From contig JAZUKI010000004.1 in assembly GCA_045643205.1 (NCBI GenBank), positions 8,331-72,330 of the forward strand: a stretch of 64,000 nucleotides of DNA, read 5' to 3'. Numbering within the stretch: the stretch's first letter is position 1; each line of letters begins with the position of its first letter. Both the position numbers and the translations under genes were made by a program. Shown piece by piece: positions 2,200 to 14,147 of this stretch. The stretch comes from Clostridia bacterium (GTDB lineage Bacteria; Bacillota; Clostridia; TANB77; CAG-508). The notes beneath the pieces are model-generated. The model searched no databases. It had not been told where the DNA came from and saw only the letters and a program-made list of their open reading frames with translations.

Positions 2200-4119
2200 A
2201 TGTTAATTAATGCAATACTTATAATTGCTATAGTTGGTGTAGCTTTTTATCTTATACAAAGAAAGATAAAATCGAATCAATTAAAAGCAGAAAACGAAGG
2301 TAAAATTAACGACGTTCAAGTTGATGATAAAACATATACTTTAGATATGATGATTAAATTCGTTAAGAAAAGAATTGACGAAATAACAAAGGTTAACTTA
2401 TATGACCTTGGTTTATCTGAAGAAGAACTTAAGAGAAGAAAAGATAAAAAGTATGAATTAAAGAAAGCTTTAAAAGGCTGTACATATGGCGATGTTAATG
2501 ACAAGAAATATGTAAAGGAATTAATTTTTGATATTTTATCTAAAGAGTATGGAGTTGATGAAACTAATGTATCAAAGGCAATACCATTTGATATTCCTTC
2601 ATTATTAACACCACAAGATAAATATGACATCATTATTTATATGTATCAAAAAGAATTTGGCTATGAAGCATGGAATACTATAATGAAGAAATACAACTTA
2701 GCCACTTTAAAATTCGTAGATGGTGATACAAAACCTTGTTATGTTGTTACTCCAGAAGAAATTAGTGATATTTATATAAAAGAAAACTACACGTTATCAT
2801 TCCAAGATAAATTAATGGTTGTAGTTCAAAGAATATATCAATTATATAAAGGATATAGTTCAATCGACGAACTAAGAGATCAAAATATTGATGGTATTTC
2901 AGGTGGTGTATCTGGTTTACCAGAATCATTCTTAAGTCAGGTTGCTCAAACTGACGCAAACTATTTAACAAAAGTTATGGATCATAAAGTACCACGTTCT
3001 TGTGATTCTATTTGGATCATGTATCATGGTATTTCAATCCGTATGGCATTCTTATCATTTGGAAATGAATCAGAATTAAAGAGAGTTTGCCAAAATATTT
3101 ATAAATATAATAACCCAGGCCAGTTATCTGATGCCAATGGTTATAAGATTAATGAAATGAAAGATGGTTCCCGTGTCGTTGTTGTAAGACCAAGTTTCTC
3201 AGAATCATGGGGATTCTTCGTAAGAAAATTCGATGTTAAGAGAGCTACTCTTGATCAATTAATCAAATGTGATGGAAAAGATGAAGCTATTGCTTTATTA
3301 ACATACTTAGTAAAAGGTGCCAGAATTATATCACTTACTGGTGAGCAGGGTTGTGGTAAAACAACTATGTTAATGGCAATGATTGAAAATATTTATGAAA
3401 CAATGAACATTCGTGTTCAGGAAGTTGCATTCGAGTTACACTTAAGAAAAATTTACCCAACACGTAACATTTTATCTTTCCGTGAAACAGAAACAATTTC
3501 TGGACAAGAAGGTTTGGACGTTCAAAAGAAGACTGACGGTTCTGTTAATATTATCGGTGAGGTTGCAACTGACGAGGTTGCTTCTTGGATGATTCAAGCT
3601 GCACAAGTTGCATCTAAATTTACATTATTTACTCACCATGCTAAAACATTCCCAGACTTAATTACAGCTCTTCGTAACTCAATGTTAAGAACTGGTGTTT
3701 TCAACAACGAATTAGTTGCTGAAAAACAAGTTGTTTCAGTATTAAACTTTGATATTCACTTAGTTAAGGATTTCAGAGGAAATCGTTATATTGAGAGAGT
3801 TACAGAATGTGTACCTGTTGAAGACTTCAACAACTATACATTCGATCAAGATAAAGAAAAAACAATTGAAGGTAAATTTGAAAAATTTGCTGACAATGCT
3901 ACAAGATTCTTTACAAAACAAACAAACAAAGAAATATTTACATATAGAAATATTATGGAATATCAAGATGGAGGATATGTTTTAACTAATAGAATTACAG
4001 ATGCAAACTTACGTGGAATGGTTACAAACATGGACGACAATGACTCTGAAGGATTTAGAGAATTTGCATATAAATATTGGGGCATTAAACTAAATGATAG
4101 AGGAGAAATTATAAAATAA
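2200..4119 (+). CDS. CpaF/TadA-family (PulE/VirB11 superfamily) secretion ATPase with an N-terminal transmembrane anchor and about a 200-aa N-terminal extension
   Basis: 639 aa. Walker A LTGEQGCGKTTMLMAM, an Asp box, Walker B and His box LFTHHAKTFPD are typical of type II/IV secretion NTPases. Residues about 1-20 (LINAILIIAIVGVAFYLI) are hydrophobic. Confidence 0.75.
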   Translation: MLINAILIIAIVGVAFYLIQRKIKSNQLKAENEGKINDVQVDDKTYTLDMMIKFVKKRIDEITKVNLYDLGLSEEELKRRKDKKYELKKALKGCTYGDVNDKKYVKELIFDILSKEYGVDETNVSKAIPFDIPSLLTPQDKYDIIIYMYQKEFGYEAWNTIMKKYNLATLKFVDGDTKPCYVVTPEEISDIYIKENYTLSFQDKLMVVVQRIYQLYKGYSSIDELRDQNIDGISGGVSGLPESFLSQVAQTDANYLTKVMDHKVPRSCDSIWIMYHGISIRMAFLSFGNESELKRVCQNIYKYNNPGQLSDANGYKINEMKDGSRVVVVRPSFSESWGFFVRKFDVKRATLDQLIKCDGKDEAIALLTYLVKGARIISLTGEQGCGKTTMLMAMIENIYETMNIRVQEVAFELHLRKIYPTRNILSFRETETISGQEGLDVQKKTDGSVNIIGEVATDEVASWMIQAAQVASKFTLFTHHAKTFPDLITALRNSMLRTGVFNNELVAEKQVVSVLNFDIHLVKDFRGNRYIERVTECVPVEDFNNYTFDQDKEKTIEGKFEKFADNATRFFTKQTNKEIFTYRNIMEYQDGGYVLTNRITDANLRGMVTNMDDNDSEGFREFAYKYWGIKLNDRGEIIK

Positions 4120-4195
4120 TGTAGCTTTCTAAAATATAATTTAATGAGAGCTATGTATAATAAGTAGACTATAGAAATGGAGGAAGAATTTTCGA

Positions 4196-6271
4196 ATGCC
4201 ATCAGGTTTTATATTTTTTATTGGAATAATGGCTGTTCTTATAATTGGAATAATAGTGCTTTTCATTTATCTACAAAAGAAAAGTAAAAATTCCGATGTT
4301 GCAAGAATACAAAAGTTGAGAAAAGGTACAGATACTAAGAAATTTTCTTCTGAAATTTTGTATCAAAAATTATATGTTTTCTATTTAAGATTTATCTTAA
4401 CAAGATTTTACTTACTAAAAATTCGTAGAAGACTAGAAATTAATAATGCTGATGATGAGTTTTCTGTTAGATTACAAGCAGCAAAAATTATTACTAAAGC
4501 ATTTGCAATTATAATTCCATTAACAATTGTAGTTATTATAATAACACATGAAAATTTCTTGTTAATGGCTATTATATTAATATTTGAATTATTTATAATA
4601 GATGCATTTACTGAAAATGCAGTTACAAAATTAGATAATGAATTACTAACTCAACAAGTTAATTTCTTTGCTGAAATGAGACATTCATATCACCAATGTA
4701 ATATGGTTGGAGAAGCAATATACTTAACAGCACAAGAAACAGATAATGTTGAAGTTGCAAGACAAGCTGAAAAAATATATGAAATTTTAAACTCAGCAGA
4801 TCCAGAAATAGAACTTGAAAAATATTATGATGTTGCACCTAATAACTATTTAAGAGAGTTTGCAGGATTATCATACTTAACCCAAGAATTTGGTGATAGA
4901 AGAATGGATAATAATGCATCATTATATTTAACAAACTTAAATAACATTTCACAAGAAATGCAACTTGAAATTTTAAAGAGAGATAAATTAAATTATGTTT
5001 TTCAATCTTTATCATTTATAGCAATTGCACCAATACTAATGCTTGAACCATTAAAAGCATGGGCAACAAGCAACTTTGGTTTTACTAAACCATTTTATAG
5101 TGGAAGTGGTGGATTGTTAATGCAAATATTAGTTATGATACTAACTTATGTTTGCTATATATTTGTTAGAAAAGTTAGAGATAGCGGTTCTACAAAATTA
5201 GTTCAGAACACACAAAACCCATGGCAAGAAAAATTATATAAATTTCCTATAGTGAAAAAAATTGTTGATTTAGTTATGCCAGCAAGGGGAACAAAAGATT
5301 ATATTAAGCTTGAAAGAAAGATGAAGGATGCTGGTTATAAAATTAAAACCAGATGGTTCTTTGTTAATAAATTAGTAATTTGTTTAGGGGCATTTATTAT
5401 CACATTATTAGTATGCTTTGGTATGCATATCATGCAAACAAATTTTGTTTATACTGATCCTACAGCAGATTACAACTTAATAAGTAACATGAATTCTAGT
5501 CAAGAGAAAAAAGCAATGGCTACTACATTACGCCAAAACAAAATTCTTGATCACTTCAAAGGAAAAGACAAATTAAAAGATACTGAAATATATGACTACA
5601 TGAAAAAACAAGCTGACTATGAAAGTATGCAAGATGATGATATATACAGAGAAATTGCTCAGATTAGAAGTAAATTAACTACATTAAATGGTGAATATTT
5701 AAAAGCTTATGAAGTTTTACTAGCATTTGCAATAGCAGCATTAGGATATGTTTTCCCTAATATTATGCTTAAGTTCCAAACTAAAATGAGACAAATGCAA
5801 ATGGAAGATGAAGTTATGTCATATCAAACAATTATCATGATGTTAATGAGAATTGAGAGAGTTGATGTTGAGATGATTCTTGAATGGCTTGAAAGATATT
5901 CAGATATATTTAAACCACAAATTAGCAAATGTTTGAATAACTATGAATCAGGTGCCTGGGAAGCACTTGATGAAATGAAAGATGAAATTACTTATGAACC
6001 TTTAATAAGAATTGTTGAAAGTTTACAAACAGCAGTTGAACAAGTTCCAATAAAAGAAGCATTTGAAGAACTTGATGCAGACAAAGATTATTATAAGGAT
6101 AAACGTAAAGAAACAAACGAAAGATTAATAGCTAGAAAAGGAAGAATTGGAAAGATTATTGGTTTCGCACCGATGGTTGTTGCATTCGTTGGATACTTAA
6201 TTGTTCCATTAGTATTAATTGGTATGGAATCAATGAACAGTACGTTCGATGAAATGTCATCAATGAACTAA
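4196..6271 (+). CDS. Polytopic inner-membrane protein, probably a fused TadB/TadC-like (T2SS F-family) platform
   Basis: 691 aa with about 7-8 predicted TM helices in two similar blocks separated by cytoplasmic domains. Lies between the secretion ATPase and the pilin-like genes. No sequence signature verified beyond topology. Confidence 0.45.
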   Translation: MPSGFIFFIGIMAVLIIGIIVLFIYLQKKSKNSDVARIQKLRKGTDTKKFSSEILYQKLYVFYLRFILTRFYLLKIRRRLEINNADDEFSVRLQAAKIITKAFAIIIPLTIVVIIITHENFLLMAIILIFELFIIDAFTENAVTKLDNELLTQQVNFFAEMRHSYHQCNMVGEAIYLTAQETDNVEVARQAEKIYEILNSADPEIELEKYYDVAPNNYLREFAGLSYLTQEFGDRRMDNNASLYLTNLNNISQEMQLEILKRDKLNYVFQSLSFIAIAPILMLEPLKAWATSNFGFTKPFYSGSGGLLMQILVMILTYVCYIFVRKVRDSGSTKLVQNTQNPWQEKLYKFPIVKKIVDLVMPARGTKDYIKLERKMKDAGYKIKTRWFFVNKLVICLGAFIITLLVCFGMHIMQTNFVYTDPTADYNLISNMNSSQEKKAMATTLRQNKILDHFKGKDKLKDTEIYDYMKKQADYESMQDDDIYREIAQIRSKLTTLNGEYLKAYEVLLAFAIAALGYVFPNIMLKFQTKMRQMQMEDEVMSYQTIIMMLMRIERVDVEMILEWLERYSDIFKPQISKCLNNYESGAWEALDEMKDEITYEPLIRIVESLQTAVEQVPIKEAFEELDADKDYYKDKRKETNERLIARKGRIGKIIGFAPMVVAFVGYLIVPLVLIGMESMNSTFDEMSSMN

Positions 6272-6309
6272 ATAGCATTGATATAAATTAAGAGGAAAGG
6301 ATTTGTTAA

Positions 6310-6906
6310 ATGGAAAATGCTTCTTTGGCCTTACGTATGGCTGGTGGTGTATTAATTGCATTATTAATAATTGGTGTTTTTGTATCAGTTATGGTAGTTA
6401 TTAATAACAATCAACAAAAGCAACAAGACGAAGAAGATTTGCGACAAGTTGAACAATTTAACGAATCCTATAAATCTTATGAAAATAGAATTGTTACTGG
6501 ATATCAAATGATTTCATTAACTAATAAAGCAATTGATTATAATGAGCGTATGTCAAAAGAATCTAAATATGCAGATTCAGCAACTTACTATACACCAATT
6601 CATATATATGTTATTTTAGAGTCTGAAGCCAATGGTGGAAGTGTAAAGCTTCCTGGTCAAAAGACTAAAAATGATAATAAAAATGCAAACAAAAATAATT
6701 ATATAGATTTAAATGATTATTATAAAAAATATTATTCTTCAGCATCTACAGAAACAAAGAATGAATTTAAAAATATGTATTTTAAATGGGAAAAAACAGA
6801 ACATGTTAGTCCAAATGCAAAAGATACAGAAGGAAAAAGTCTTGGTAATGTAGATGGAGTAGGAAGAGTATATGAAATGTATTTCAAAGAATATGTAAAA
6901 GATTAA
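6310..6906 (+). CDS. Pilin-like protein P1 (N-terminal MENAS...GG hydrophobic segment)
   Basis: 198 aa. N-terminus MENASLALRMAGGVLIALLIIGVFVSVMVV is followed by a polar extracellular region. Paralogous to P2, P4 and P5. RBS GAGGAAAGGA. Confidence 0.5.
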   Translation: MENASLALRMAGGVLIALLIIGVFVSVMVVINNNQQKQQDEEDLRQVEQFNESYKSYENRIVTGYQMISLTNKAIDYNERMSKESKYADSATYYTPIHIYVILESEANGGSVKLPGQKTKNDNKNANKNNYIDLNDYYKKYYSSASTETKNEFKNMYFKWEKTEHVSPNAKDTEGKSLGNVDGVGRVYEMYFKEYVKD

Positions 6907-6923
6907 TAAAGGAGAAGTAAAGC

Positions 6924-7676
6924 ATGGATGAAAACGCTTCTCAATCTCTATTAATGGTTGGGGGAATATTATTAGCAATTTCAGTATTAAGTTTCTTCGT
7001 ATATGCAATGGCATCATTCGGTGGATTTGCAAGTAATATGAATGCTCAAATCGGAGAAAGTGAAATACAGAAACATAATCAAAATTTTCAAAAATATGAA
7101 AGCAGATATAACATTACATTTCAAGAAATTGTTTCTACAATAAATTATGCAAAAGATTGGAATGATCAAAATGATTATTCATTTGATCAAGTTACGAATT
7201 CTAACAACGATAAAAAAGGCCAATATGTTGTAAATGTTAACATTATTGATGCTAAAGGCAATGTAATCCAAGTTTTTGGAAAAAATGCTAATAGTTTAAT
7301 TAATGAAGCAAATTATAAAGATAATCAAAAAATAAAAAACATTTTAAACAAAATGCTAAATGATTCAAATTATTCTGATTATTATTATGCTGTAAATGTT
7401 AAGGCAATTGATATTTTAAAAAAGAAAGAAAATAATTATTACGTTTTAAATGGACAATTTGGAGCTAAACATGGAACAATTGCTAAAAAAGATAAAGATA
7501 TAGGCATAAATTCAACAACAGGTTTAGTTGAAGAAATTTATTTTACAGCAGTATCAAAAAGTAATTATTCAAACATTGATCAATTTAAAGTTGTTAACAA
7601 ACAAGGAAAAGATGTAAATGTAGAATACAAAGTTAAGGATAGAGAATATTTTAGAATGGCTGAATTAGAGGGTTGA
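6924..7676 (+). CDS. Pilin-like protein P2 (MDENAS...GG N-terminus)
   Basis: 250 aa. MDENASQSLLMVGGILLAISVLSFFVY. Shares the post-TM motif Q-x-F-x-x-Y-x-x-Y-E-x-R with P1 (QFNESYKSYENR versus QNFQKYESRYN). RBS AAGGAGAAG. Confidence 0.5.
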   Translation: MDENASQSLLMVGGILLAISVLSFFVYAMASFGGFASNMNAQIGESEIQKHNQNFQKYESRYNITFQEIVSTINYAKDWNDQNDYSFDQVTNSNNDKKGQYVVNVNIIDAKGNVIQVFGKNANSLINEANYKDNQKIKNILNKMLNDSNYSDYYYAVNVKAIDILKKKENNYYVLNGQFGAKHGTIAKKDKDIGINSTTGLVEEIYFTAVSKSNYSNIDQFKVVNKQGKDVNVEYKVKDREYFRMAELEG

Positions 7677-7679
7677 TGA

Positions 7680-8114
7680 ATGAAAAAAAGTACACTAACA
7701 GTTATCATATTAATGTTAATAGTATTTGGTTTAGCAGTCTATTTTGCAATTAATTCTAGAATAGGATCAAACATAGCTTCAGAAGAAAATAGATATTATC
7801 AACAATTATTGAATAAAGAAATAACAGGAACAGAATTATCATCTGTTATAAATAAAGTTATAGATACAAATAAGAAAAATGAAATTTCTTTAGATGATAA
7901 AAAGTTATATAAAGAAAATGATAGTAACTCAATTATAATGGAAGTTACATTCAAATATGAAGATGGAACAAAAACACTCAGAGGAGAGAAAATCTACAAT
8001 GGTGAAATTAAAAATTTTATTTCATATTATGGAAATATCAAATTCAAATGTACTAAACTAGAATATCATGATTCAACTAAGAAAGTTAAGAAAATATATG
8101 TAGAAGAAATATAA
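7680..8114 (+). CDS. Small membrane-anchored protein P3 (pilin/pseudopilin-like, different N-terminus)
   Basis: 144 aa. MKKSTLTVIILMLIVFGLAVYFAI is a TM segment followed by a polar domain. Start is 4 nt after the P2 stop, so translational coupling is likely. Confidence 0.4.
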   Translation: MKKSTLTVIILMLIVFGLAVYFAINSRIGSNIASEENRYYQQLLNKEITGTELSSVINKVIDTNKKNEISLDDKKLYKENDSNSIIMEVTFKYEDGTKTLRGEKIYNGEIKNFISYYGNIKFKCTKLEYHDSTKKVKKIYVEEI

Positions 8115-8282
8115 TTCAAAAAGAATATATATGAAATATAATATGATTCAAAAGATAGAAAATATAAAACACAAAAGATTTAGATAAACAAAAGTGCAGA
8201 AAAACATAAATTATATTATATTTATTACTTAGTTTTTAAAATTTTAAACATAAATTAATTTATTTTTTAGGAGGAAAATTTT

Positions 8283-8834
8283 ATGGAAAATGCATCAAAA
8301 GCCCTAATTATAGTAGGTGCCGTACTTATTGCAATTTTATTAATCGGTTTTGGAGTTATGATTTTAAATAACTCAACAAGTCAGGTTAGTCCTGATGCTT
8401 TGAACTCACAAGCAGCTCAAACACACAATGCACAATTTAATAATTACACAGGAAAAACAATTACAGCTCAACAAGTTAAAACATTAATGAATGTTATTAC
8501 AACAAATAATGTAACAGGTAAAACAGCAGACACACCACAAAAAGTATATGTTTACTATACACCAGCATCAGCAACAACATCAACATCAACATCAGATAAA
8601 GAAGCGATTAAAGAAGGATATAATGATCCAGCAAGAATTTCTGCAGCTGTAAGAAATGGTTACACATATACAGTTGAAATTAATAACTCAAATGCAGTTG
8701 ATGTTACAGACAAAGAAGTAACAGATGAAAGCACAGCACCAAGTGATAAAAATGATACATCAGCAGCAAGTTATTATTCAAATGGTTATATAAGAGTTAT
8801 TTGTATTACAGAAAATTCAAGAAGTAGCAAATAA
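8283..8834 (+). CDS. Pilin-like protein P4 (MENAS...VGAVLIA N-terminus)
   Basis: 183 aa. MENASKALIIVGAVLIAILLIGFGVMIL, with a Thr/Ser-rich C-terminal half. RBS AGGAGGAAAA. Confidence 0.5.
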   Translation: MENASKALIIVGAVLIAILLIGFGVMILNNSTSQVSPDALNSQAAQTHNAQFNNYTGKTITAQQVKTLMNVITTNNVTGKTADTPQKVYVYYTPASATTSTSTSDKEAIKEGYNDPARISAAVRNGYTYTVEINNSNAVDVTDKEVTDESTAPSDKNDTSAASYYSNGYIRVICITENSRSSK

Positions 8835-8881
8835 TTAACTAGTATATTGTACTAATATCCATAAAATTAGGAGAAATATAA

Positions 8882-9757
8882 ATGGAGAATGCATCAGAAG
8901 CTTTAAAAATGGCAGGCGCTATGCTAATTTTTGTAGTGGCCTTAACCATCACAATAATTTCATTTACTGCCGCAAGACAAGCTTCTGATAGCATTGTCAG
9001 TACTTATGGCCAGTTAACTACTTTTTATGATTATGAACTATACAAAAATACAGGTTCATATAGAGAAGTAAAATCTGATGAGATAATAGCTAATTTGTAT
9101 TCATATTATCAAACCAACAATACAATTTTGTTTTATTATTTAAAAGATGGAACTTATAATACAAAGAGTAAAACCTTTTCAACAGATGCTGTCATTAATA
9201 AGATGACTTTATATTATACTCCTACATCAGACACGGTAACACAAGCAGATAAAAACCAAGGAAGGCTTTCAAACTTAAGAAAATCATTCTTAAGAAATAC
9301 AACTCTTGGTGATGATGATACACGTGCAATTTATGGATTAGACATTCAAGATGAAACAATAACTAGAAATGAAGCCTGGAAGGGAACAGCAGGAGATGCT
9401 AAAATCTTTATAGATTGTTTAGTTTCAGGAACTACATATGTAAATAACAATGTAAGTAAATCAAATTATAATGATATTAATCGTACATATTATGATAATA
9501 AAGGAACATTAAATATTATATTTCAATATCAAGGAATATTAAAAAAGCCATTGAATCAAGCTAGTGATTGTTTATTCATTGAAAGAGATGGAGAATATAT
9601 TTCTTCAGCGAAAGATGAAGATACAAGAAATGATGAATGGAAAAGAGTTGTCGCAAATTCAACCGAGGAGTTGAATGATGAAGTTTTAGAAAATAATACT
9701 GCTACAACAAAGAAAGTAATACAGTATATTTATATACCAAATGAAAAGTGTATATAA
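8882..9757 (+). CDS. Pilin-like protein P5 (MENAS...AGAMLIF N-terminus)
   Basis: 291 aa. MENASEALKMAGAMLIFVVALTITIISF. RBS AGGAGAAAT. Confidence 0.5.
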   Translation: MENASEALKMAGAMLIFVVALTITIISFTAARQASDSIVSTYGQLTTFYDYELYKNTGSYREVKSDEIIANLYSYYQTNNTILFYYLKDGTYNTKSKTFSTDAVINKMTLYYTPTSDTVTQADKNQGRLSNLRKSFLRNTTLGDDDTRAIYGLDIQDETITRNEAWKGTAGDAKIFIDCLVSGTTYVNNNVSKSNYNDINRTYYDNKGTLNIIFQYQGILKKPLNQASDCLFIERDGEYISSAKDEDTRNDEWKRVVANSTEELNDEVLENNTATTKKVIQYIYIPNEKCI

Positions 9758-9870
9758 GTAAAGAGTATAAAAAACAGACAAAGCATAGATATATAAGGGT
9801 TACATGTCTAATTTCATAGTATATTTTTGGAATAAAATTGTTAAAAATTACCTATATTTGGGTAAAACTA

Positions 9871-9899
9871 TTGGAAAAACGGGAAAATCATGCTATAAT
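9871..9899 (+). promoter_or_regulatory. Putative sigma-A-type promoter for P6 (TTGGAA-17 bp-TGcTATAAT)
   Basis: TTGGAA at 9871-9876, a 17-nt spacer, and TATAAT at 9894-9899 with a TG extended -10. Sits about 35 nt upstream of RBS AGGAGGA and the ATG at 9935. Confidence 0.4.
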
Positions 9900-9934
9900 A
9901 TTAGTATTGATTAAATTTTTAGGAGGATAAGAGA

Positions 9935-10459
9935 ATGAATGATACAGTAATGTCAATCGTTGCAATCTTTTTGGCAGCAATTTTAATGTTTATATTTCCA
10001 CTAATGTCTACTGCAGATAGAAGTGATGATATAGCACAACAAGCTGTACAAACACAAACAACTGAGTTTGTTGATAATATTAGAACTACTGGAAAAATAA
10101 CTCAAGATAGTTATAATAGTTTTGCAACAACTATTGCTGGAACTGGTAATTCTTTTGATATAGAGCTTGAAGTTCAAATACTAGATGATAATGCTAGAAA
10201 GAAAACAGCTCAAGCATCAGCATCTAAAGTTGGTGAAAATAGTTATTATAGTGAGTATACATCACAAATCCAAGAACATATGGATAAAAATGGTGGAACT
10301 TATATTTTAAAAGAAGGTGATATTGTATCTTGTACAGTTAGAAATACAAGCCAAACAATGTCTCAAATGTTAAAGAATTTCTTTTACCAAGTAACAGGTA
10401 ATAATTCATATAATATTTCTGGACAACACTCAGGAATTGTTAATGTTAATGGAAATTAA
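9935..10459 (+). CDS. Membrane-anchored pilin/pseudopilin-like protein P6
   Basis: 174 aa. MNDTVMSIVAIFLAAILMFIFPLM is a TM segment followed by a polar domain. Own promoter and followed by a terminator. Confidence 0.4.
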   Translation: MNDTVMSIVAIFLAAILMFIFPLMSTADRSDDIAQQAVQTQTTEFVDNIRTTGKITQDSYNSFATTIAGTGNSFDIELEVQILDDNARKKTAQASASKVGENSYYSEYTSQIQEHMDKNGGTYILKEGDIVSCTVRNTSQTMSQMLKNFFYQVTGNNSYNISGQHSGIVNVNGN

Positions 10460-10564: not shown

Positions 10565-11581
10565 ATGAAGGATTCAAAAATTTCTTTTAAGTTAATTGAT
10601 TTTATAATTCTTAATATAGCAATAGTTGCAATAATTGCAGTTATTGTTTTTTGTAATGTAAATAAATTACATAATAATTCAAATCCTAGCAGTATTTCAA
10701 AAGAAATTATTCAAGAAGACTTAAAAAAATCAATAGAAAATAGATATTACTATAATCAATTAGATGCTAATGGTCAAAAAATGTACAATACATTTTTAAG
10801 TAACACTGAAAAATTTAGAGCAGGAAACGAATACATATCAATTGATATAAATGAAGAAAGTGCAGGGGATAGTTTTCAAGCAGCATGGGATGCATTTTCT
10901 GTAGATAGACCAGAGTATTTTTACATAGATACTAATAAACTTTCACTATTAACTAATGTTAAAACTAACATTTTTAATAATAAAGAATATGAATATAAGC
11001 TTCAACCTAAGAACGGAGAAACATATTTTGAAAAAGAATTTCCAACAAAAGAGGATGTTGATTTTGCAAATTCACAATTAGAAACAATTACTAAATCAAT
11101 AATAGATCAAGCAAATAGCAAATCAACTAGATATGAGAAAGTAAAGTTTATACATGACTATCTAGTAGATAACATTTCTTATTCAAAAGATGAAAATGAA
11201 GCTAGTGCTGATACAATATATGGAGCATTGATTAATAAAGTTTGTGTTTGCGAAGGATATGCAAAATCATTCAAATATTTATTAGATAAATTAGAAATAC
11301 CATGTATTATTGTTTTTGGAAACGGAACCAACTCAGAGGGAAAACAAGAATATCATTCTTGGAACTATGTGAAAATGGAAGATGATAAATGGTATGCTGT
11401 TGATGTTACATGGGATGATCCTATTGTAGTTGGCGGAGGAAAAGTAACAACAGCAATTAAGTATAAATATTTTTTAGTTGGAACAGAAATTAATTCTAAT
11501 CATACTTTAGAATCAGATATCTCAGGAACAGGTCAAAATTTTAAATATCCTGAGTTAAGTTTTAGTAACTATAGTAAATAA
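10565..11581 (+). CDS. Membrane-anchored transglutaminase-like cysteine protease-fold protein
   Basis: 338 aa. N-terminal TM segment FIILNIAIVAIIAVIVF. Cys-His-Asp triad context CVCEGYAKSF ... EYHSWNYV ... WYAVDVTWDD matches the transglutaminase-like core. Confidence 0.7.
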   Translation: MKDSKISFKLIDFIILNIAIVAIIAVIVFCNVNKLHNNSNPSSISKEIIQEDLKKSIENRYYYNQLDANGQKMYNTFLSNTEKFRAGNEYISIDINEESAGDSFQAAWDAFSVDRPEYFYIDTNKLSLLTNVKTNIFNNKEYEYKLQPKNGETYFEKEFPTKEDVDFANSQLETITKSIIDQANSKSTRYEKVKFIHDYLVDNISYSKDENEASADTIYGALINKVCVCEGYAKSFKYLLDKLEIPCIIVFGNGTNSEGKQEYHSWNYVKMEDDKWYAVDVTWDDPIVVGGGKVTTAIKYKYFLVGTEINSNHTLESDISGTGQNFKYPELSFSNYSK

Positions 11582-11609: not shown

Positions 11610-11886
11610 TTAAGTATAGAGAATAATAAAAAAATAGGAGCAATCTAAATTGCTCCTATTTTTATGTTGTTTATTTGTTATCGCTGTTATTGTTATTATT
11701 GCTATTATTATAGTTGTTATAGCCATGGTTGTTATGGTTATAATTGTTATATCCATGATTATTATGATTATAATAATTATTTTTATAATTGTTATGGCCA
11801 TGGTAGTTATTATAATTATTGTGATAATGATAATTACTATTCTTAGTATTATTGTTATTATTGTTATTATTATTATTTTCAACTGA
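11610..11886. repeat. Low-complexity (ATT/ATA/GTT)n microsatellite-like tract, open in several frames on both strands
   Basis: About 270 nt made almost only of att/gtt/ata/atg triplets. The ORF track shows stop-free frames on both strands. It encodes the Asn/Tyr/His-rich tail of the murC ORF. Confidence 0.7.
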
Positions 11887-13512
11887 TTCTTCTGATTGAG
11901 ATTCAGTTACATTGTTTGATGGAGTAGAGCTAAATTGTTCTAATGAATCAAAGTTCTCTATTTTTGTTTCTTCAATTGATGAACATGTTTCACAGTCATT
12001 TTCTTGAGTACAAGCACATTTATTTGTACATCCATTTGCACATTCGTTTTCACAATGATCTTCACATTCATTTTCGCAGTGATCTTCACAATGACATTCA
12101 AAAGTAGAAGAGCATTCAGCAGAGTCTTGTTCACTTTTAACAAGTTCATGTCCAACTTTAGTGATTGAACCAGCACCTTGTGTAATGATGATATCATCTG
12201 GTTTTGCATTTCTTCTAACAAAATCAACAATGTTTTCTAAATCTTTAATATAGTATGCTTTTCTACCAAGAGCTTCGATTTTATCAATAATATCTTTTGA
12301 AGATACTTCGTTATTATCAATTTCTCTAGCAGCATATATATCAGTAACAATAATGTTATCAAAGTTTGTTAAAACATTAGCAAAGTCATCTAGCAATGCT
12401 TTTGTTCTACTAAATGTATGTGGTTGGAAAAGAATCCATGAATGATTATATTTTCTCTTTTTAACTGCATTTGCAACAGCTAAAATTTCTGTAGGATGAT
12501 GTCCATAATCATCAAAAACATTTGCACCATTAACTTTTCCTAAATATTGAAAACGTCTTTCAGCACCACCATATGTTTTTAATGTATTTTTTACTGAGTT
12601 TTTATCAACTTCAAATTGACTACAAACAGCGATACAAGCTAATGCATCATAAATATTATGTTCTCCAGGAACACCTAGTTTGAATGTTTTATAAAAAGTA
12701 TTGTTATGATAAACATCAAATGAAGCACATCCGTTTACATCATAAGAAATATTTTTTGCTACAAAGTTTGCATTATTTGATTTTATACTAAATGAAATAC
12801 TCTTTGCTTTAGTATGAGAAGATAGTCCATGACAATTCTCATCATCAGCATTGTAAACCAATATTCCATCATCAGGTAATAATTTAACGTATTCTACGAA
12901 AGCTGCTTTAATATTGTCCATTGTTTTATAGTAATCTAAGTGATCATTATCAATATTTAAGATAACTTCAACTTTAGGGAAGAAATCTAGGAAACTTGCA
13001 GAATATTCGCAAGCTTCAATGATAAAATATTCACTTTCACCAACTCTATAATTTCCACCAATTGAATCTAAAACAGCGCCAATTTGAATTGTTGGATCTT
13101 TTTTGGCATCTAAGAAACATTGAGCAATCATTGAAGTAGTAGTCGATTTTCCATGAGTTCCAGAAACACAAATAGAATTTCTGAAAACTCTAGTAAGTTC
13201 ACCCATGATTTCTTTTCTTTCAATTGTAGGAATACCTAATTCTTTAGCTCTAACTAATTCAGGATCTTCTGGTTTTATAGCTGCAGAATAAATAACTAAA
13301 TCAGATCTATCAACATTCATAGGATTATGACCTATATAAACTGGGATATCATTTTCAATTAATTGATTTGTAATGTCAGATTCGGTTGAATCAGAGCCAG
13401 TTACATTAAAATCCCACTTTTTTAAAATTTCGGCAATACCACTCATAGATGAACCACCGATACCTATCATATGTATATTTTTATATTGTTTTAGTTCTTG
13501 TAAATTTGGCAT
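11671..13512 (-). CDS. murC: UDP-N-acetylmuramate--L-alanine ligase MurC with an unusual C-terminal extension of about 150 aa (Cys/His/Glu-rich, then Asn/Tyr/His-rich)
   Basis: N-terminus MPNLQELKQYKNIHMIGIGGSSMSGIAEIL (the MurC GIGG nucleotide motif). Start chosen at ATG 13510-13512, preceded by GGAGAT. The MurC domain ends near ...ITKVGHELVK, and the frame stays open for about 150 more aa. Confidence 0.85.
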   Translation of the reverse strand: MPNLQELKQYKNIHMIGIGGSSMSGIAEILKKWDFNVTGSDSTESDITNQLIENDIPVYIGHNPMNVDRSDLVIYSAAIKPEDPELVRAKELGIPTIERKEIMGELTRVFRNSICVSGTHGKSTTTSMIAQCFLDAKKDPTIQIGAVLDSIGGNYRVGESEYFIIEACEYSASFLDFFPKVEVILNIDNDHLDYYKTMDNIKAAFVEYVKLLPDDGILVYNADDENCHGLSSHTKAKSISFSIKSNNANFVAKNISYDVNGCASFDVYHNNTFYKTFKLGVPGEHNIYDALACIAVCSQFEVDKNSVKNTLKTYGGAERRFQYLGKVNGANVFDDYGHHPTEILAVANAVKKRKYNHSWILFQPHTFSRTKALLDDFANVLTNFDNIIVTDIYAAREIDNNEVSSKDIIDKIEALGRKAYYIKDLENIVDFVRRNAKPDDIIITQGAGSITKVGHELVKSEQDSAECSSTFECHCEDHCENECEDHCENECANGCTNKCACTQENDCETCSSIEETKIENFDSLEQFSSTPSNNVTESQSEESVENNNNNNNNNNTKNSNYHYHNNYNNYHGHNNYKNNYYNHNNHGYNNYNHNNHGYNNYNNSNNNNNSDNK

Positions 13513-13850
13513 AAAACAAAAATCTCCTTTACATATAGTCAAGTTACAAACTCTATTATACTACAAAACGGGCAAAAAAACAACAAATTAAGTAAAATAG
13601 AGAGGTAGAGTAAAGACAAAAATTTTGTCTTAAAAGGAACAAAAAGACACAGAAAAAAACATAAAAAAGCGAGTAGAAATTTTGAGCAAAATATTAATCA
13701 AAAAAATATGAAAAAACATGTAAAAAAATGCAAATAATTGTAAAAAACTATTGAAAATTTTATTTATTTATTATAAAAATTATACAGGTAAAGTTTTATC
13801 GCGTATATAGTACGTAAGTACAATTAAAACTTTGGAAGGAGACTTTTTAA

Positions 13851-14147
13851 ATGGAAATCACAGACGTAAGATTAAGAAAATTAAGCACAGACAACAAGCT
13901 TAAAGCTGTTGCATCTGTAACATTCGACAACGAATTCGTTGTACACGAAATCAAAGTTATCGAAAATCCTGAAGGAGTATTATTTATTGCTATGCCTAGC
14001 AGAAAAATTGGAACAACTGGAGAACACAGAGATGTAGCTCATCCAATTAACCCAGCTGCTAGAGAAAAGATCCAAAATGCAATCTTAGAAGTATACAATA
14101 ATACACCAGAGCCAGAAGCTAAAGCTGAAGAAACACCAGCTGAATAA
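13851..14147 (+). CDS. spoVG: Septation protein SpoVG
   Basis: 98 aa. [11 protein letters not shown]...[19 protein letters not shown]...FIAMPSRK is a near-canonical SpoVG sequence. RBS GGAAGGAG. Confidence 0.9.

Follow-up and report, generated by a model that had tools for sequence, protein, structure and literature searches.

A predicted disordered C-terminal extension of MurC, rich in cysteine and asparagine, in a clade of uncultured gut Clostridia

Mur ligases are compact cytoplasmic enzymes and antibiotic targets, and to our knowledge long disordered appendages on them have not been described. In a 64,000-nucleotide (nt) stretch of DNA from a Clostridia bacterium (assembly GCA_045643205.1, contig JAZUKI010000004.1, positions 8,331 to 72,330; hereafter the window, in whose own numbering all positions are given), the murC gene on the minus strand stays open far beyond the end of the ligase domain. 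This raises the question of whether the overrun is a genuine part of the protein and, if so, what it may do. A first-pass annotation of the window, which had described a continuation of about 150 amino acids (aa), considered a lineage-specific extension, a metal-binding appendage, and an assembly or sequencing artefact. We found a tail of 153 residues (aa 461 to 613, window positions 11674 to 12132), with the sequence exactly as quoted there, which is very probably real, translated, and under selection. The interval 11671 to 12230 originally assigned to it does contain the tail but reaches about 100 nt into the sequence for the C-terminal ligase domain; the tail itself begins at position 12132.

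The first 460 residues of the protein appear from their sequence to be an ordinary MurC and not MurD, MurE, MurF, or Mpl. All three Mur ligase families of Pfam matched above their cut-offs with E-values of 1e-21 to 1e-32 (PF01225 Mur_ligase, 84.5 bits; PF08245 Mur_ligase_M, 113.5 bits; PF02875 Mur_ligase_C, 75.9 bits). The ATP-binding P-loop, SGTHGKSTTT, was read in the translation at aa 117 to 126, and its residues G118, T119, H120, G121, and K122 are unchanged throughout an alignment of 27 sequences. The N-terminus MPNLQEL is common to all relatives, and orthology is supported by the best full-length matches, which are named UDP-N-acetylmuramate--L-alanine ligase by NCBI and JGI (P0062, P0121). 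The nearest named relatives are metagenome-assembled genomes (MAGs) of uncultured Clostridia, Clostridium sp. CAG:793, and Clostridium sp. CAG:245, and the ligase part is 58 to 74% identical to tail-less MurC proteins from MAGs of related gut Clostridia. Typical MurC homologues stop at 459 to 461 aa, just past the helix ...QGAG.IT..GH.LV. Residues 1 to 460 thus resemble a canonical Clostridia MurC of ~460 aa, including the three Pfam domains and the P-loop GTHGKST, whereas the window protein differs from it by 153 extra C-terminal residues without a domain match.

The tail opens with ECSSTFECHCEDHCENECEDHCENECANGCTNKCACTQENDCETC, followed by a stretch rich in Ser and Glu and then by a block dominated by Asn, Tyr, and His (N/Y/H block); the size and composition of the three modules are given in Table 1. 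The residues of the Cys module are almost exclusively C, E, D, H, and N. When read in codon register, the module forms a ladder of six consecutive units of three residues plus Cys, EDHC-ENEC-EDHC-ENEC-ANGC-TNKC, which closes with an ancestral CxxC (NDCETC). The linker ends in an anchor conserved in the clade, ESQ.E..VENN. The N/Y/H module consists of 56% Asn and 16% Tyr and is encoded almost only by the codons AAT/AAC, TAT/TAC, and CAT/CAC, the plus strand reading as (ATT)n-like repeats; the motif HGY occurs twice in the tail, and YHGH is also present. Against a proteome background of 1.0% Cys and 1.2% His, these potential ligands are enriched (12 Cys and 3 His in 45 aa; 8 His in 68 aa) in a terminal extension that has no counterpart in outgroups. 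The tail stands apart from everything else in the ~55 open reading frames (ORFs) that reach 100 aa or more in the window: its N/Y/H content peaks at 36 of 40 residues versus at most 15 of 40 in other plausible genes, and its Cys content at 11 of 40 versus at most 5 of 40 elsewhere. In an AlphaFold2 model built on the 27-sequence alignment, the mean predicted local distance difference test (pLDDT) score per 10-residue block was mostly 79 to 96 (range 62 to 96) for residues 11 to 460, and 24 to 39 without secondary structure for residues 462 to 613. The tail is therefore predicted to be intrinsically disordered and to hold no folded domain.

As the first-pass annotation had proposed, the Cys-rich segment is encoded by imperfect tandem DNA repeats, for which Tandem Repeats Finder (TRF) reported arrays of periods 12 and 24, and the N/Y/H segment by an (ATT)n tract, with arrays of periods 3, 15, and 30. 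AT-rich low-complexity repeats of this kind are prone to error, and the tail might accordingly be an artefact in which a frameshift erased the true stop codon, or a mis-annotation of a locus in which the hydrophobic antisense ORF of the plus strand (11650 to 11886) is the true gene. This explanation is extremely improbable. An identical 613-aa protein is already public (P0145 at NCBI, on a 75-kb contig, filed under the cluster representative P0002), and the frame stays open in at least eight independent assemblies. In sister assemblies it runs to a stop codon abutting a transcription terminator, and in the window, too, the terminator lies where the extended stop would place it. Furthermore, the tail repeats are shorter than one sequencing read, and the two 24-nt copies (12039 to 12090) differ at three positions, every one of them synonymous. 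The suggested assembly or sequencing artefact was rejected on these grounds. When the tail DNA was shuffled, none of 20,000 shuffles was stop-free in frame, and the remaining five frames over the tail contain 3 to 44 stops; the open tail frame is therefore more than a chance result of composition. The GC content of the window is uniform, at 24 to 31%.

Two further observations bear on the artefact question. On one 174-kb ENA contig, murC is split into ORFs of 40, 158, and 288 aa (P0133, P0134, and P0143). Because frameshifts there also hit the ligase core and not the tail alone, the split gene is probably not a pseudogene but a product of general error in a long-read assembly prone to mistakes. 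In addition, each of the six loci has an antisense ORF of 63 to 78 aa, rich in Ile, Val, and Met, that faces the N/Y/H block; in the window, an AGGAG inside the terminator stem is found 9 nt before its TTG. Its recurrence follows automatically from the mirroring of xAT/xAC codons to ATx/GTx. As it also starts within the terminator and lacks loops and charged residues, it was rejected as a true gene.

A comparison of murC 3′ ends across relatives, which the first-pass annotation had named as a check, revealed homologous tails in seven sister lineages. The seven nearest cluster representatives (P0001 to P0007) have lengths of 577 to 595 aa and ligase parts ~91% identical to that of the window protein, and all are tailed. 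In a neighbor-joining tree of 121 ligase cores, the eight tailed MurC proteins form one clade, of which the window sequence is the most divergent member; the sister of this clade, P0008, is tail-less (p-distance, 0.27). Among the 120 best homologues, such tails are confined to the tailed clade (seven clusters plus the window's own sequence), and in a scan of genome contigs the relatives among the matches listed were at most 73% identical and tail-less. The idea of a lineage-specific extension is thereby supported: a single MurC clade has homologous tails in 8/8 members, and the outgroups have none of them.

The DNA was examined for five tailed relatives from independent assemblies (L036, L037, L039, L040, and L042). 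All five loci have the same gene order, namely, PNP, BacA, SpoVG, murC, and a convergent transglutaminase-like gene, and in all five a hairpin terminator, GAGGAGCA...TGCTCCTC, directly follows the extended stop codon. The tail-less outgroup locus L001 shows the same order, with murC stopping at ...KLVGK, ~100 nt containing the terminator, and then the same convergent gene. Because L001 has only this short segment and no gene between murC and the terminator, an origin of the tail by fusion with a downstream gene was rejected in favor of a 3′ extension. Judged from the sequences, the tail appears to have arisen once, in a small clade of uncultured gut Clostridia with ~27% GC.

The sister tails are homologous and contain the three modules in fixed order, Cys cluster, acidic spacer, and N/Y/H block. 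In the relatives, the Cys motif is short (DDCCG[SA]C, EDYC[GE]TC, or DDCCGTS) with a C-x-x-C core, and the spacer is acidic, rich in Glu, Pro, Val, and Thr or in Ser and Glu, and ends in the same ESQ.E..VENN. Within the N/Y/H block, YH, NNYH, and H.HYNNYN are invariant across the clade, and the relatives carry HNHNHNHD runs. The segment NDCETCSSIEE of the window protein matches EDYCETCSPVEE of P0136; therefore, the distal end of the Cys module still has the ancestral CxxC, and the CxxxC array expanded upstream of it. The long CxxxC array thus appears to be an expansion of the short CxxC/CC motif that is private to this genome. At the strain level, members of the 90% clusters have 565 to 598 aa, all length changes being in-frame indels in the N/Y/H block. 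The relatives end with HDNNK[YF]GNRFNH, whereas the window protein ends with ...SDNK and lacks the last seven residues: its TAA (region 11671 to 11690) stands at a TAT/TTT codon of the relatives, and the terminator is ~16 nt closer. The shorter end would be explained by a truncation of seven residues together with a deletion in the lineage of this genome, or else by a gain in the relatives.

Tails of another kind were observed outside the clade. P0111 (522 aa) and P0114 (538 aa), ~62% identical to the window ligase, form a separate pair with an unrelated tail rich in Lys and Glu, in which an acidic spacer is followed by a conserved basic C-terminus, LES[TV]A[EQ][KR]L[KR]...KK. From its sequence, this end resembles an amphipathic helix, possibly one for docking to the membrane or to a partner. 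A relationship of this tail to the window linker was rejected, the shared ESQPE being at chance level and the clade a separate one, and the two were treated as independent. MurC may thus have gained a C-terminal extension on more than one occasion among these gut Clostridia.

As the neutral yardstick for selection on the tail we used the synonymous divergence (dS) of the ligase core and the expected number of nonsense mutations. Classical ratios of nonsynonymous to synonymous divergence (dN/dS) for the tail, 0.08 to 0.30, were set aside because misalignment of low-complexity sequence inflates tail dS. Core dS was 0.24 to 0.49 with a core dN/dS of ~0.1, and tail dN was 0.15 to 0.24 among the relatives and 0.43 to 0.55 between the relatives and the window; at least 31 distinct gap blocks separate the six tails. 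On the six-sequence tree, which spans 1.07 synonymous substitutions per site and offers 16 to 26 stop-adjacent mutational opportunities per tail per unit distance, ~18 nonsense substitutions in the tail were expected under neutrality and none was observed (P of ~1e-8). Similarly, no truncated tail was found among ~30 complete sequences. The third positions of conserved Asn, His, and Tyr columns vary freely between T and C, which is synonymous, and the three ancestral Cys columns show 3 changes versus ~8.6 expected. Among codons one step from AAT in the N/Y/H block, those for Tyr and His account for 70 to 86% versus 25% expected, Ile never occurs, and Asp, Thr, and Lys are rare; the corresponding binomial p-values of 1e-6 to 1e-9 are overstated, because repeat amplification makes the tests nonindependent. 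These patterns suggest that the composition of the N/Y/H block is a codon-level xAT pattern under compositional selection, and that selection on the tail keeps its presence, length, frame, and composition, not its exact sequence. Such a combination is typical of disordered regions that have a function.

Searches with the tail in Pfam, PDB, and large protein sets yielded no significant match. Among 5.8 billion proteins, a single candidate shared words with the 91-aa query of Cys module and linker, and nothing was scored as a match; phmmer found no match to the whole tail among 1.84 billion protein representatives. With a profile of seven N/Y/H modules, none of 8000 candidates reached an E-value of 0.01 or below, but low complexity and bias filtering left even the known relatives unscored, so that this outcome does not count as a negative. 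The exact 24-nt repeat unit had no match in JGI metagenome contigs. Pieces of the tail had no significant match in PDB, where a nucleoplasmin-like chain remained below threshold, and Pfam gave nothing above threshold for the tail, with C_tripleX and GAF_PdtaS as sub-threshold noise. The C_tripleX model (PF02363) has the same C-x3-C periodicity, but its match fell below threshold (13.3 bits versus a cut-off of 22.9; E = 0.098). Unlike C_tripleX or metallothionein-like arrays, the window array is acidic, contains His, and lies inside a larger disordered tail; none of the metallothionein family models in Pfam was matched. Fusions of MurC with Ddl and with MurB are known. No second catalytic domain is fused to MurC here, the tail being without a Pfam domain.

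What might the tail do? The tail probably grows and shrinks via in-frame slippage of short repeats, and in this genome the Cys site has been amplified from 2 or 3 to 12 cysteines by duplication of 12- and 24-nt units. The chemistry of the ligase would be unchanged, and the tail would serve as a flexible, multivalent array of ligands, in which Cys thiolates, His imidazoles, and Glu/Asp carboxylates could coordinate metals of the soft or borderline class (Zn, Ni, Co, or Cu). With a metal-loaded tail, MurC would buffer or sequester metals; another option is that MurC molecules are cross-linked via their tails by metals, or by pH through His-Tyr contacts. Two clusters of metal ligands, the CxxC/CC array and the His-rich block, are parted by a strongly acidic spacer, and to judge from this composition the tail very likely binds metals in vitro. 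That metal binding is also its physiological role is our tentative preference, to which we give somewhat less than an even chance. We favor a flexible metal-binding appendage because its closest functional precedent is domain B of the Helicobacter pylori GroES protein HspA, a Cys/His-rich C-terminal segment that binds Ni and serves in storage and detoxification, with 4 Cys and 8 His in ~27 aa (PMC5116745). Both are clade-restricted Cys/His-rich C-terminal tails on an essential cytoplasmic housekeeping protein, an analogy of logic and composition. The two tails do not resemble each other in sequence; that of MurC has five times the length, an acidic spacer, and dominant Asn and Tyr, and the organism that carries it is not known to be Ni-dependent.

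Several observations speak against a metal-binding role. No homology to metal-binding proteins was found in Pfam, in PDB, or in the two very large protein searches, and the Cys motif varies, being DDCCGTS in one lineage and EDYCGTC in another. The YGNRFNH end conserved in the relatives is missing from the window protein. No other such tail occurs within the 64-kb window, so that there is no sign of a genome-wide metal-handling program. The Asn/Tyr part fits metal-independent self-association equally well. Finally, tail dN amounts to ~0.5 to 1.0 times core dS, a weak sequence constraint under which much of the tail could be near-neutral. This last point leads to the rather doubtful reading that the tail is a functionless run-on, in which slippage in a very AT-rich genome lengthened the murC 3′ end, the C-terminus tolerates the addition, and the composition stems from repeat amplification rather than from selection. 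The many gap blocks, the length polymorphism between strains, the orphan sequence, the terminal motif that is not universal, and the nonindependence of the compositional tests would all agree with such a run-on, which is possible for much of the tail sequence. It sits poorly with the lack of both nonsense mutations and truncated tails, with repeat copies that differ only synonymously, with the retention of Cys in a proteome containing 1% of this residue, and with the absence of Ile and the rarity of Thr, Lys, and Asp in the N/Y/H block, each of which is one mutation away from AAT.

The self-association just mentioned can also be taken as the function itself. In that case Tyr and His would act as stickers and Asn as a spacer, and the N/Y/H block would drive reversible self-association, condensation, or amyloid-like assembly of MurC; pH gating through His would be possible, the acidic linker would keep the enzyme soluble, and the metal-ligand character would be incidental. 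We consider this unlikely. The block is a Q/N-rich stretch, predicted to be disordered, of the length used to define prion-like regions (at least ~60 aa; here 68 aa with a pLDDT of ~25), and its Tyr/His positions (YH, NNYH, and HNHYNNYN) do not vary in the clade. An N-rich amyloid core of Clostridium botulinum Rho, NNNNSNFNNNSNNNSSFNNSN, self-assembles (PMC4703818) and likewise belongs to a long Asn-dominated disordered segment with interspersed aromatic residues in a housekeeping protein of low-GC Clostridia. The MurC segment differs in being C-terminal and not N-terminal, in having Tyr/His instead of Ser/Phe, and in its location on a metabolic enzyme and not an RNA-binding factor. In the GHGLY repeats of squid beak HBPs, coacervation is triggered when His loses its proton and hydrogen bonds form between His and Tyr (PMC6884462). 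The alternation of His and Tyr in a polar background of the Gly/Asn type is shared with the HGY and YHGH motifs of the MurC tail, but the HBPs are extracellular animal proteins with another repeat unit, and the resemblance is one of composition only. In a survey, bacterial prion-like domains were enriched in peptidoglycan-related proteins, although these were mostly extracellular cell-wall enzymes and Mur ligases were not among them (PMC4606120). Moreover, aggregation of an essential enzyme would be costly, and the conserved Cys cluster and its expansion would be left unexplained. That cluster is the starting point of a highly unlikely alternative based on sequence composition, a thiol redox sensor in a strict anaerobe, whose cysteines would be oxidized by oxygen or reactive oxygen species to disulfides within or between molecules, by which MurC would be inactivated or sequestered, so that wall synthesis pauses. 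The conserved CxxC core (CGSC, CGAC, CGTC, or CETC), the 12 Cys in 45 aa of the window protein, and the membership in obligately anaerobic gut Clostridia, as judged from relatives, would suit such a sensor. The case is purely compositional, however, the His/Asn/Tyr block plays no part in it, and the second Cys of the CxxC is missing in the lineage with DDCCGTS. Returning to the favored metal-binding appendage, a combination with self-association is conceivable and improbable: in peptidoglycan synthesis MurC is the first ligase to act on the peptide stem, and its tail would be an assembly switch responsive to metals, redox state, or pH, in which Cys/His sites capture Zn, Ni, or Cu (or become oxidized) and the N/Y/H block then clusters or condenses MurC reversibly.

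The surroundings of murC are listed in Table 1. The terminator hairpin lies 7 nt 3′ of the murC stop codon and also serves the convergent transglutaminase-like gene, which is found in the same place in all relatives, including the tail-less outgroups. The intergenic region between spoVG and murC (13513 to 13850) is unusually long (~340 nt), AT-rich, and marked by long T-runs; Rfam matched no RNA family, leader, or riboswitch between positions 11000 and 14500. A probable pilus gene cluster on the plus strand (2200 to 10459) adjoins murC, in which an ATPase gene and a 691-aa ORF are followed by six or seven small pilin-like ORFs. A pilus cluster described as conserved in the uncultured order TANB77 consists of assembly genes followed by seven pilin-like genes (PMC11680825); the layout is alike, and the comparison was made by layout and not by pilin sequence. 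The neighboring cluster suggests that the organism belongs to this group, which has been linked to immunotherapy response.

Table 1. Features of murC, its tail, and the adjoining genes, with positions in the window
Feature	Position	Strand	Basis or remark
murC, complete coding sequence (613 aa + stop)	11671-13512	-	ORF list, sequence; identical to NCBI protein P0145
murC start codon ATG	13512	-	Read from sequence
Shine-Dalgarno-like AAAGGAG, 11 nt 5′ of murC ATG	13524-13530	-	Read from sequence
Mur ligase catalytic, middle, and C-terminal domains (aa 12-448), P-loop GTHGKST	12169-13479	-	Pfam
Cys module, 45 aa (12 Cys, 10 Glu, 3 His, 3 Asp; net charge -12)	11983-12117	-	
Acidic Ser/Glu-rich linker, 35 aa (net charge -8)	11878-11982	-	
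Asn/Tyr/His module, 68 aa (38 N, 11 Y, 8 H)	11674-11877	-	
murC TAA stop of the extended ORF	11671-11673	-	Sequence
Tandem repeat behind the Cys array, period 12, 6.3 copies	12015-12090	-	TRF
Tandem repeat, period 24, 2.2 copies, 89% match	12039-12090	-	TRF
Arrays of periods 3, 15, and 30 beneath the N/Y/H block	11657-11877		TRF
Bidirectional hairpin terminator, 15-bp stem, T-runs on both sides	11630-11663		
Antisense shadow ORF, I/V/M-rich, 78 aa	11650-11886	+	
Antisense shadow ORF, Cys/Tyr-rich, 60 aa	11664-11846	+	
Transglutaminase-like protein (PF01841) with N-terminal membrane anchor	10565-11581	+	Convergent with murC
TATAAT box between spoVG and murC	13555-13560		
spoVG	13851-14147	+	Divergent from murC
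T2SSE-type ATPase (PF00437)	2200-4119	+	
691-aa ORF	4196-6271	+	No Pfam match
Four small ORFs starting MENAS.AL.MAG or MDENASQSLLMV	6310-6906, 6924-7676, 8283-8834, 8882-9757	+	
Further small ORFs of the pilus cluster	7680-8114, 9935-10459	+	

Taken as a real, selected, orphan disordered extension of MurC in uncultured bacteria of the human and animal gut, the tail has practical consequences. Annotators should not trim such tails as errors, and a heterologously expressed MurC of this kind may copurify on immobilized metal affinity chromatography resin or aggregate. If the tail binds metals or self-associates, MurC would be, after H. pylori GroES, a second case in bacteria of a housekeeping protein that has taken on metal handling, or, alternatively, a rare bacterial metabolic enzyme regulated through a prion-like region. 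The assembly switch, if true, would couple the supply of cell wall precursors to the chemical state of the gut in an uncultured clade of Clostridia with reduced genomes, and would represent a previously undescribed regulation of the Mur pathway via a prion-like, metal-binding disordered region. The locus also shows neatly, in nature, how a protein module can be created, expanded, and remodeled by in-frame repeat slippage where the genome is AT-rich, here from 2 or 3 to 12 cysteines, while selection preserves its frame and composition.

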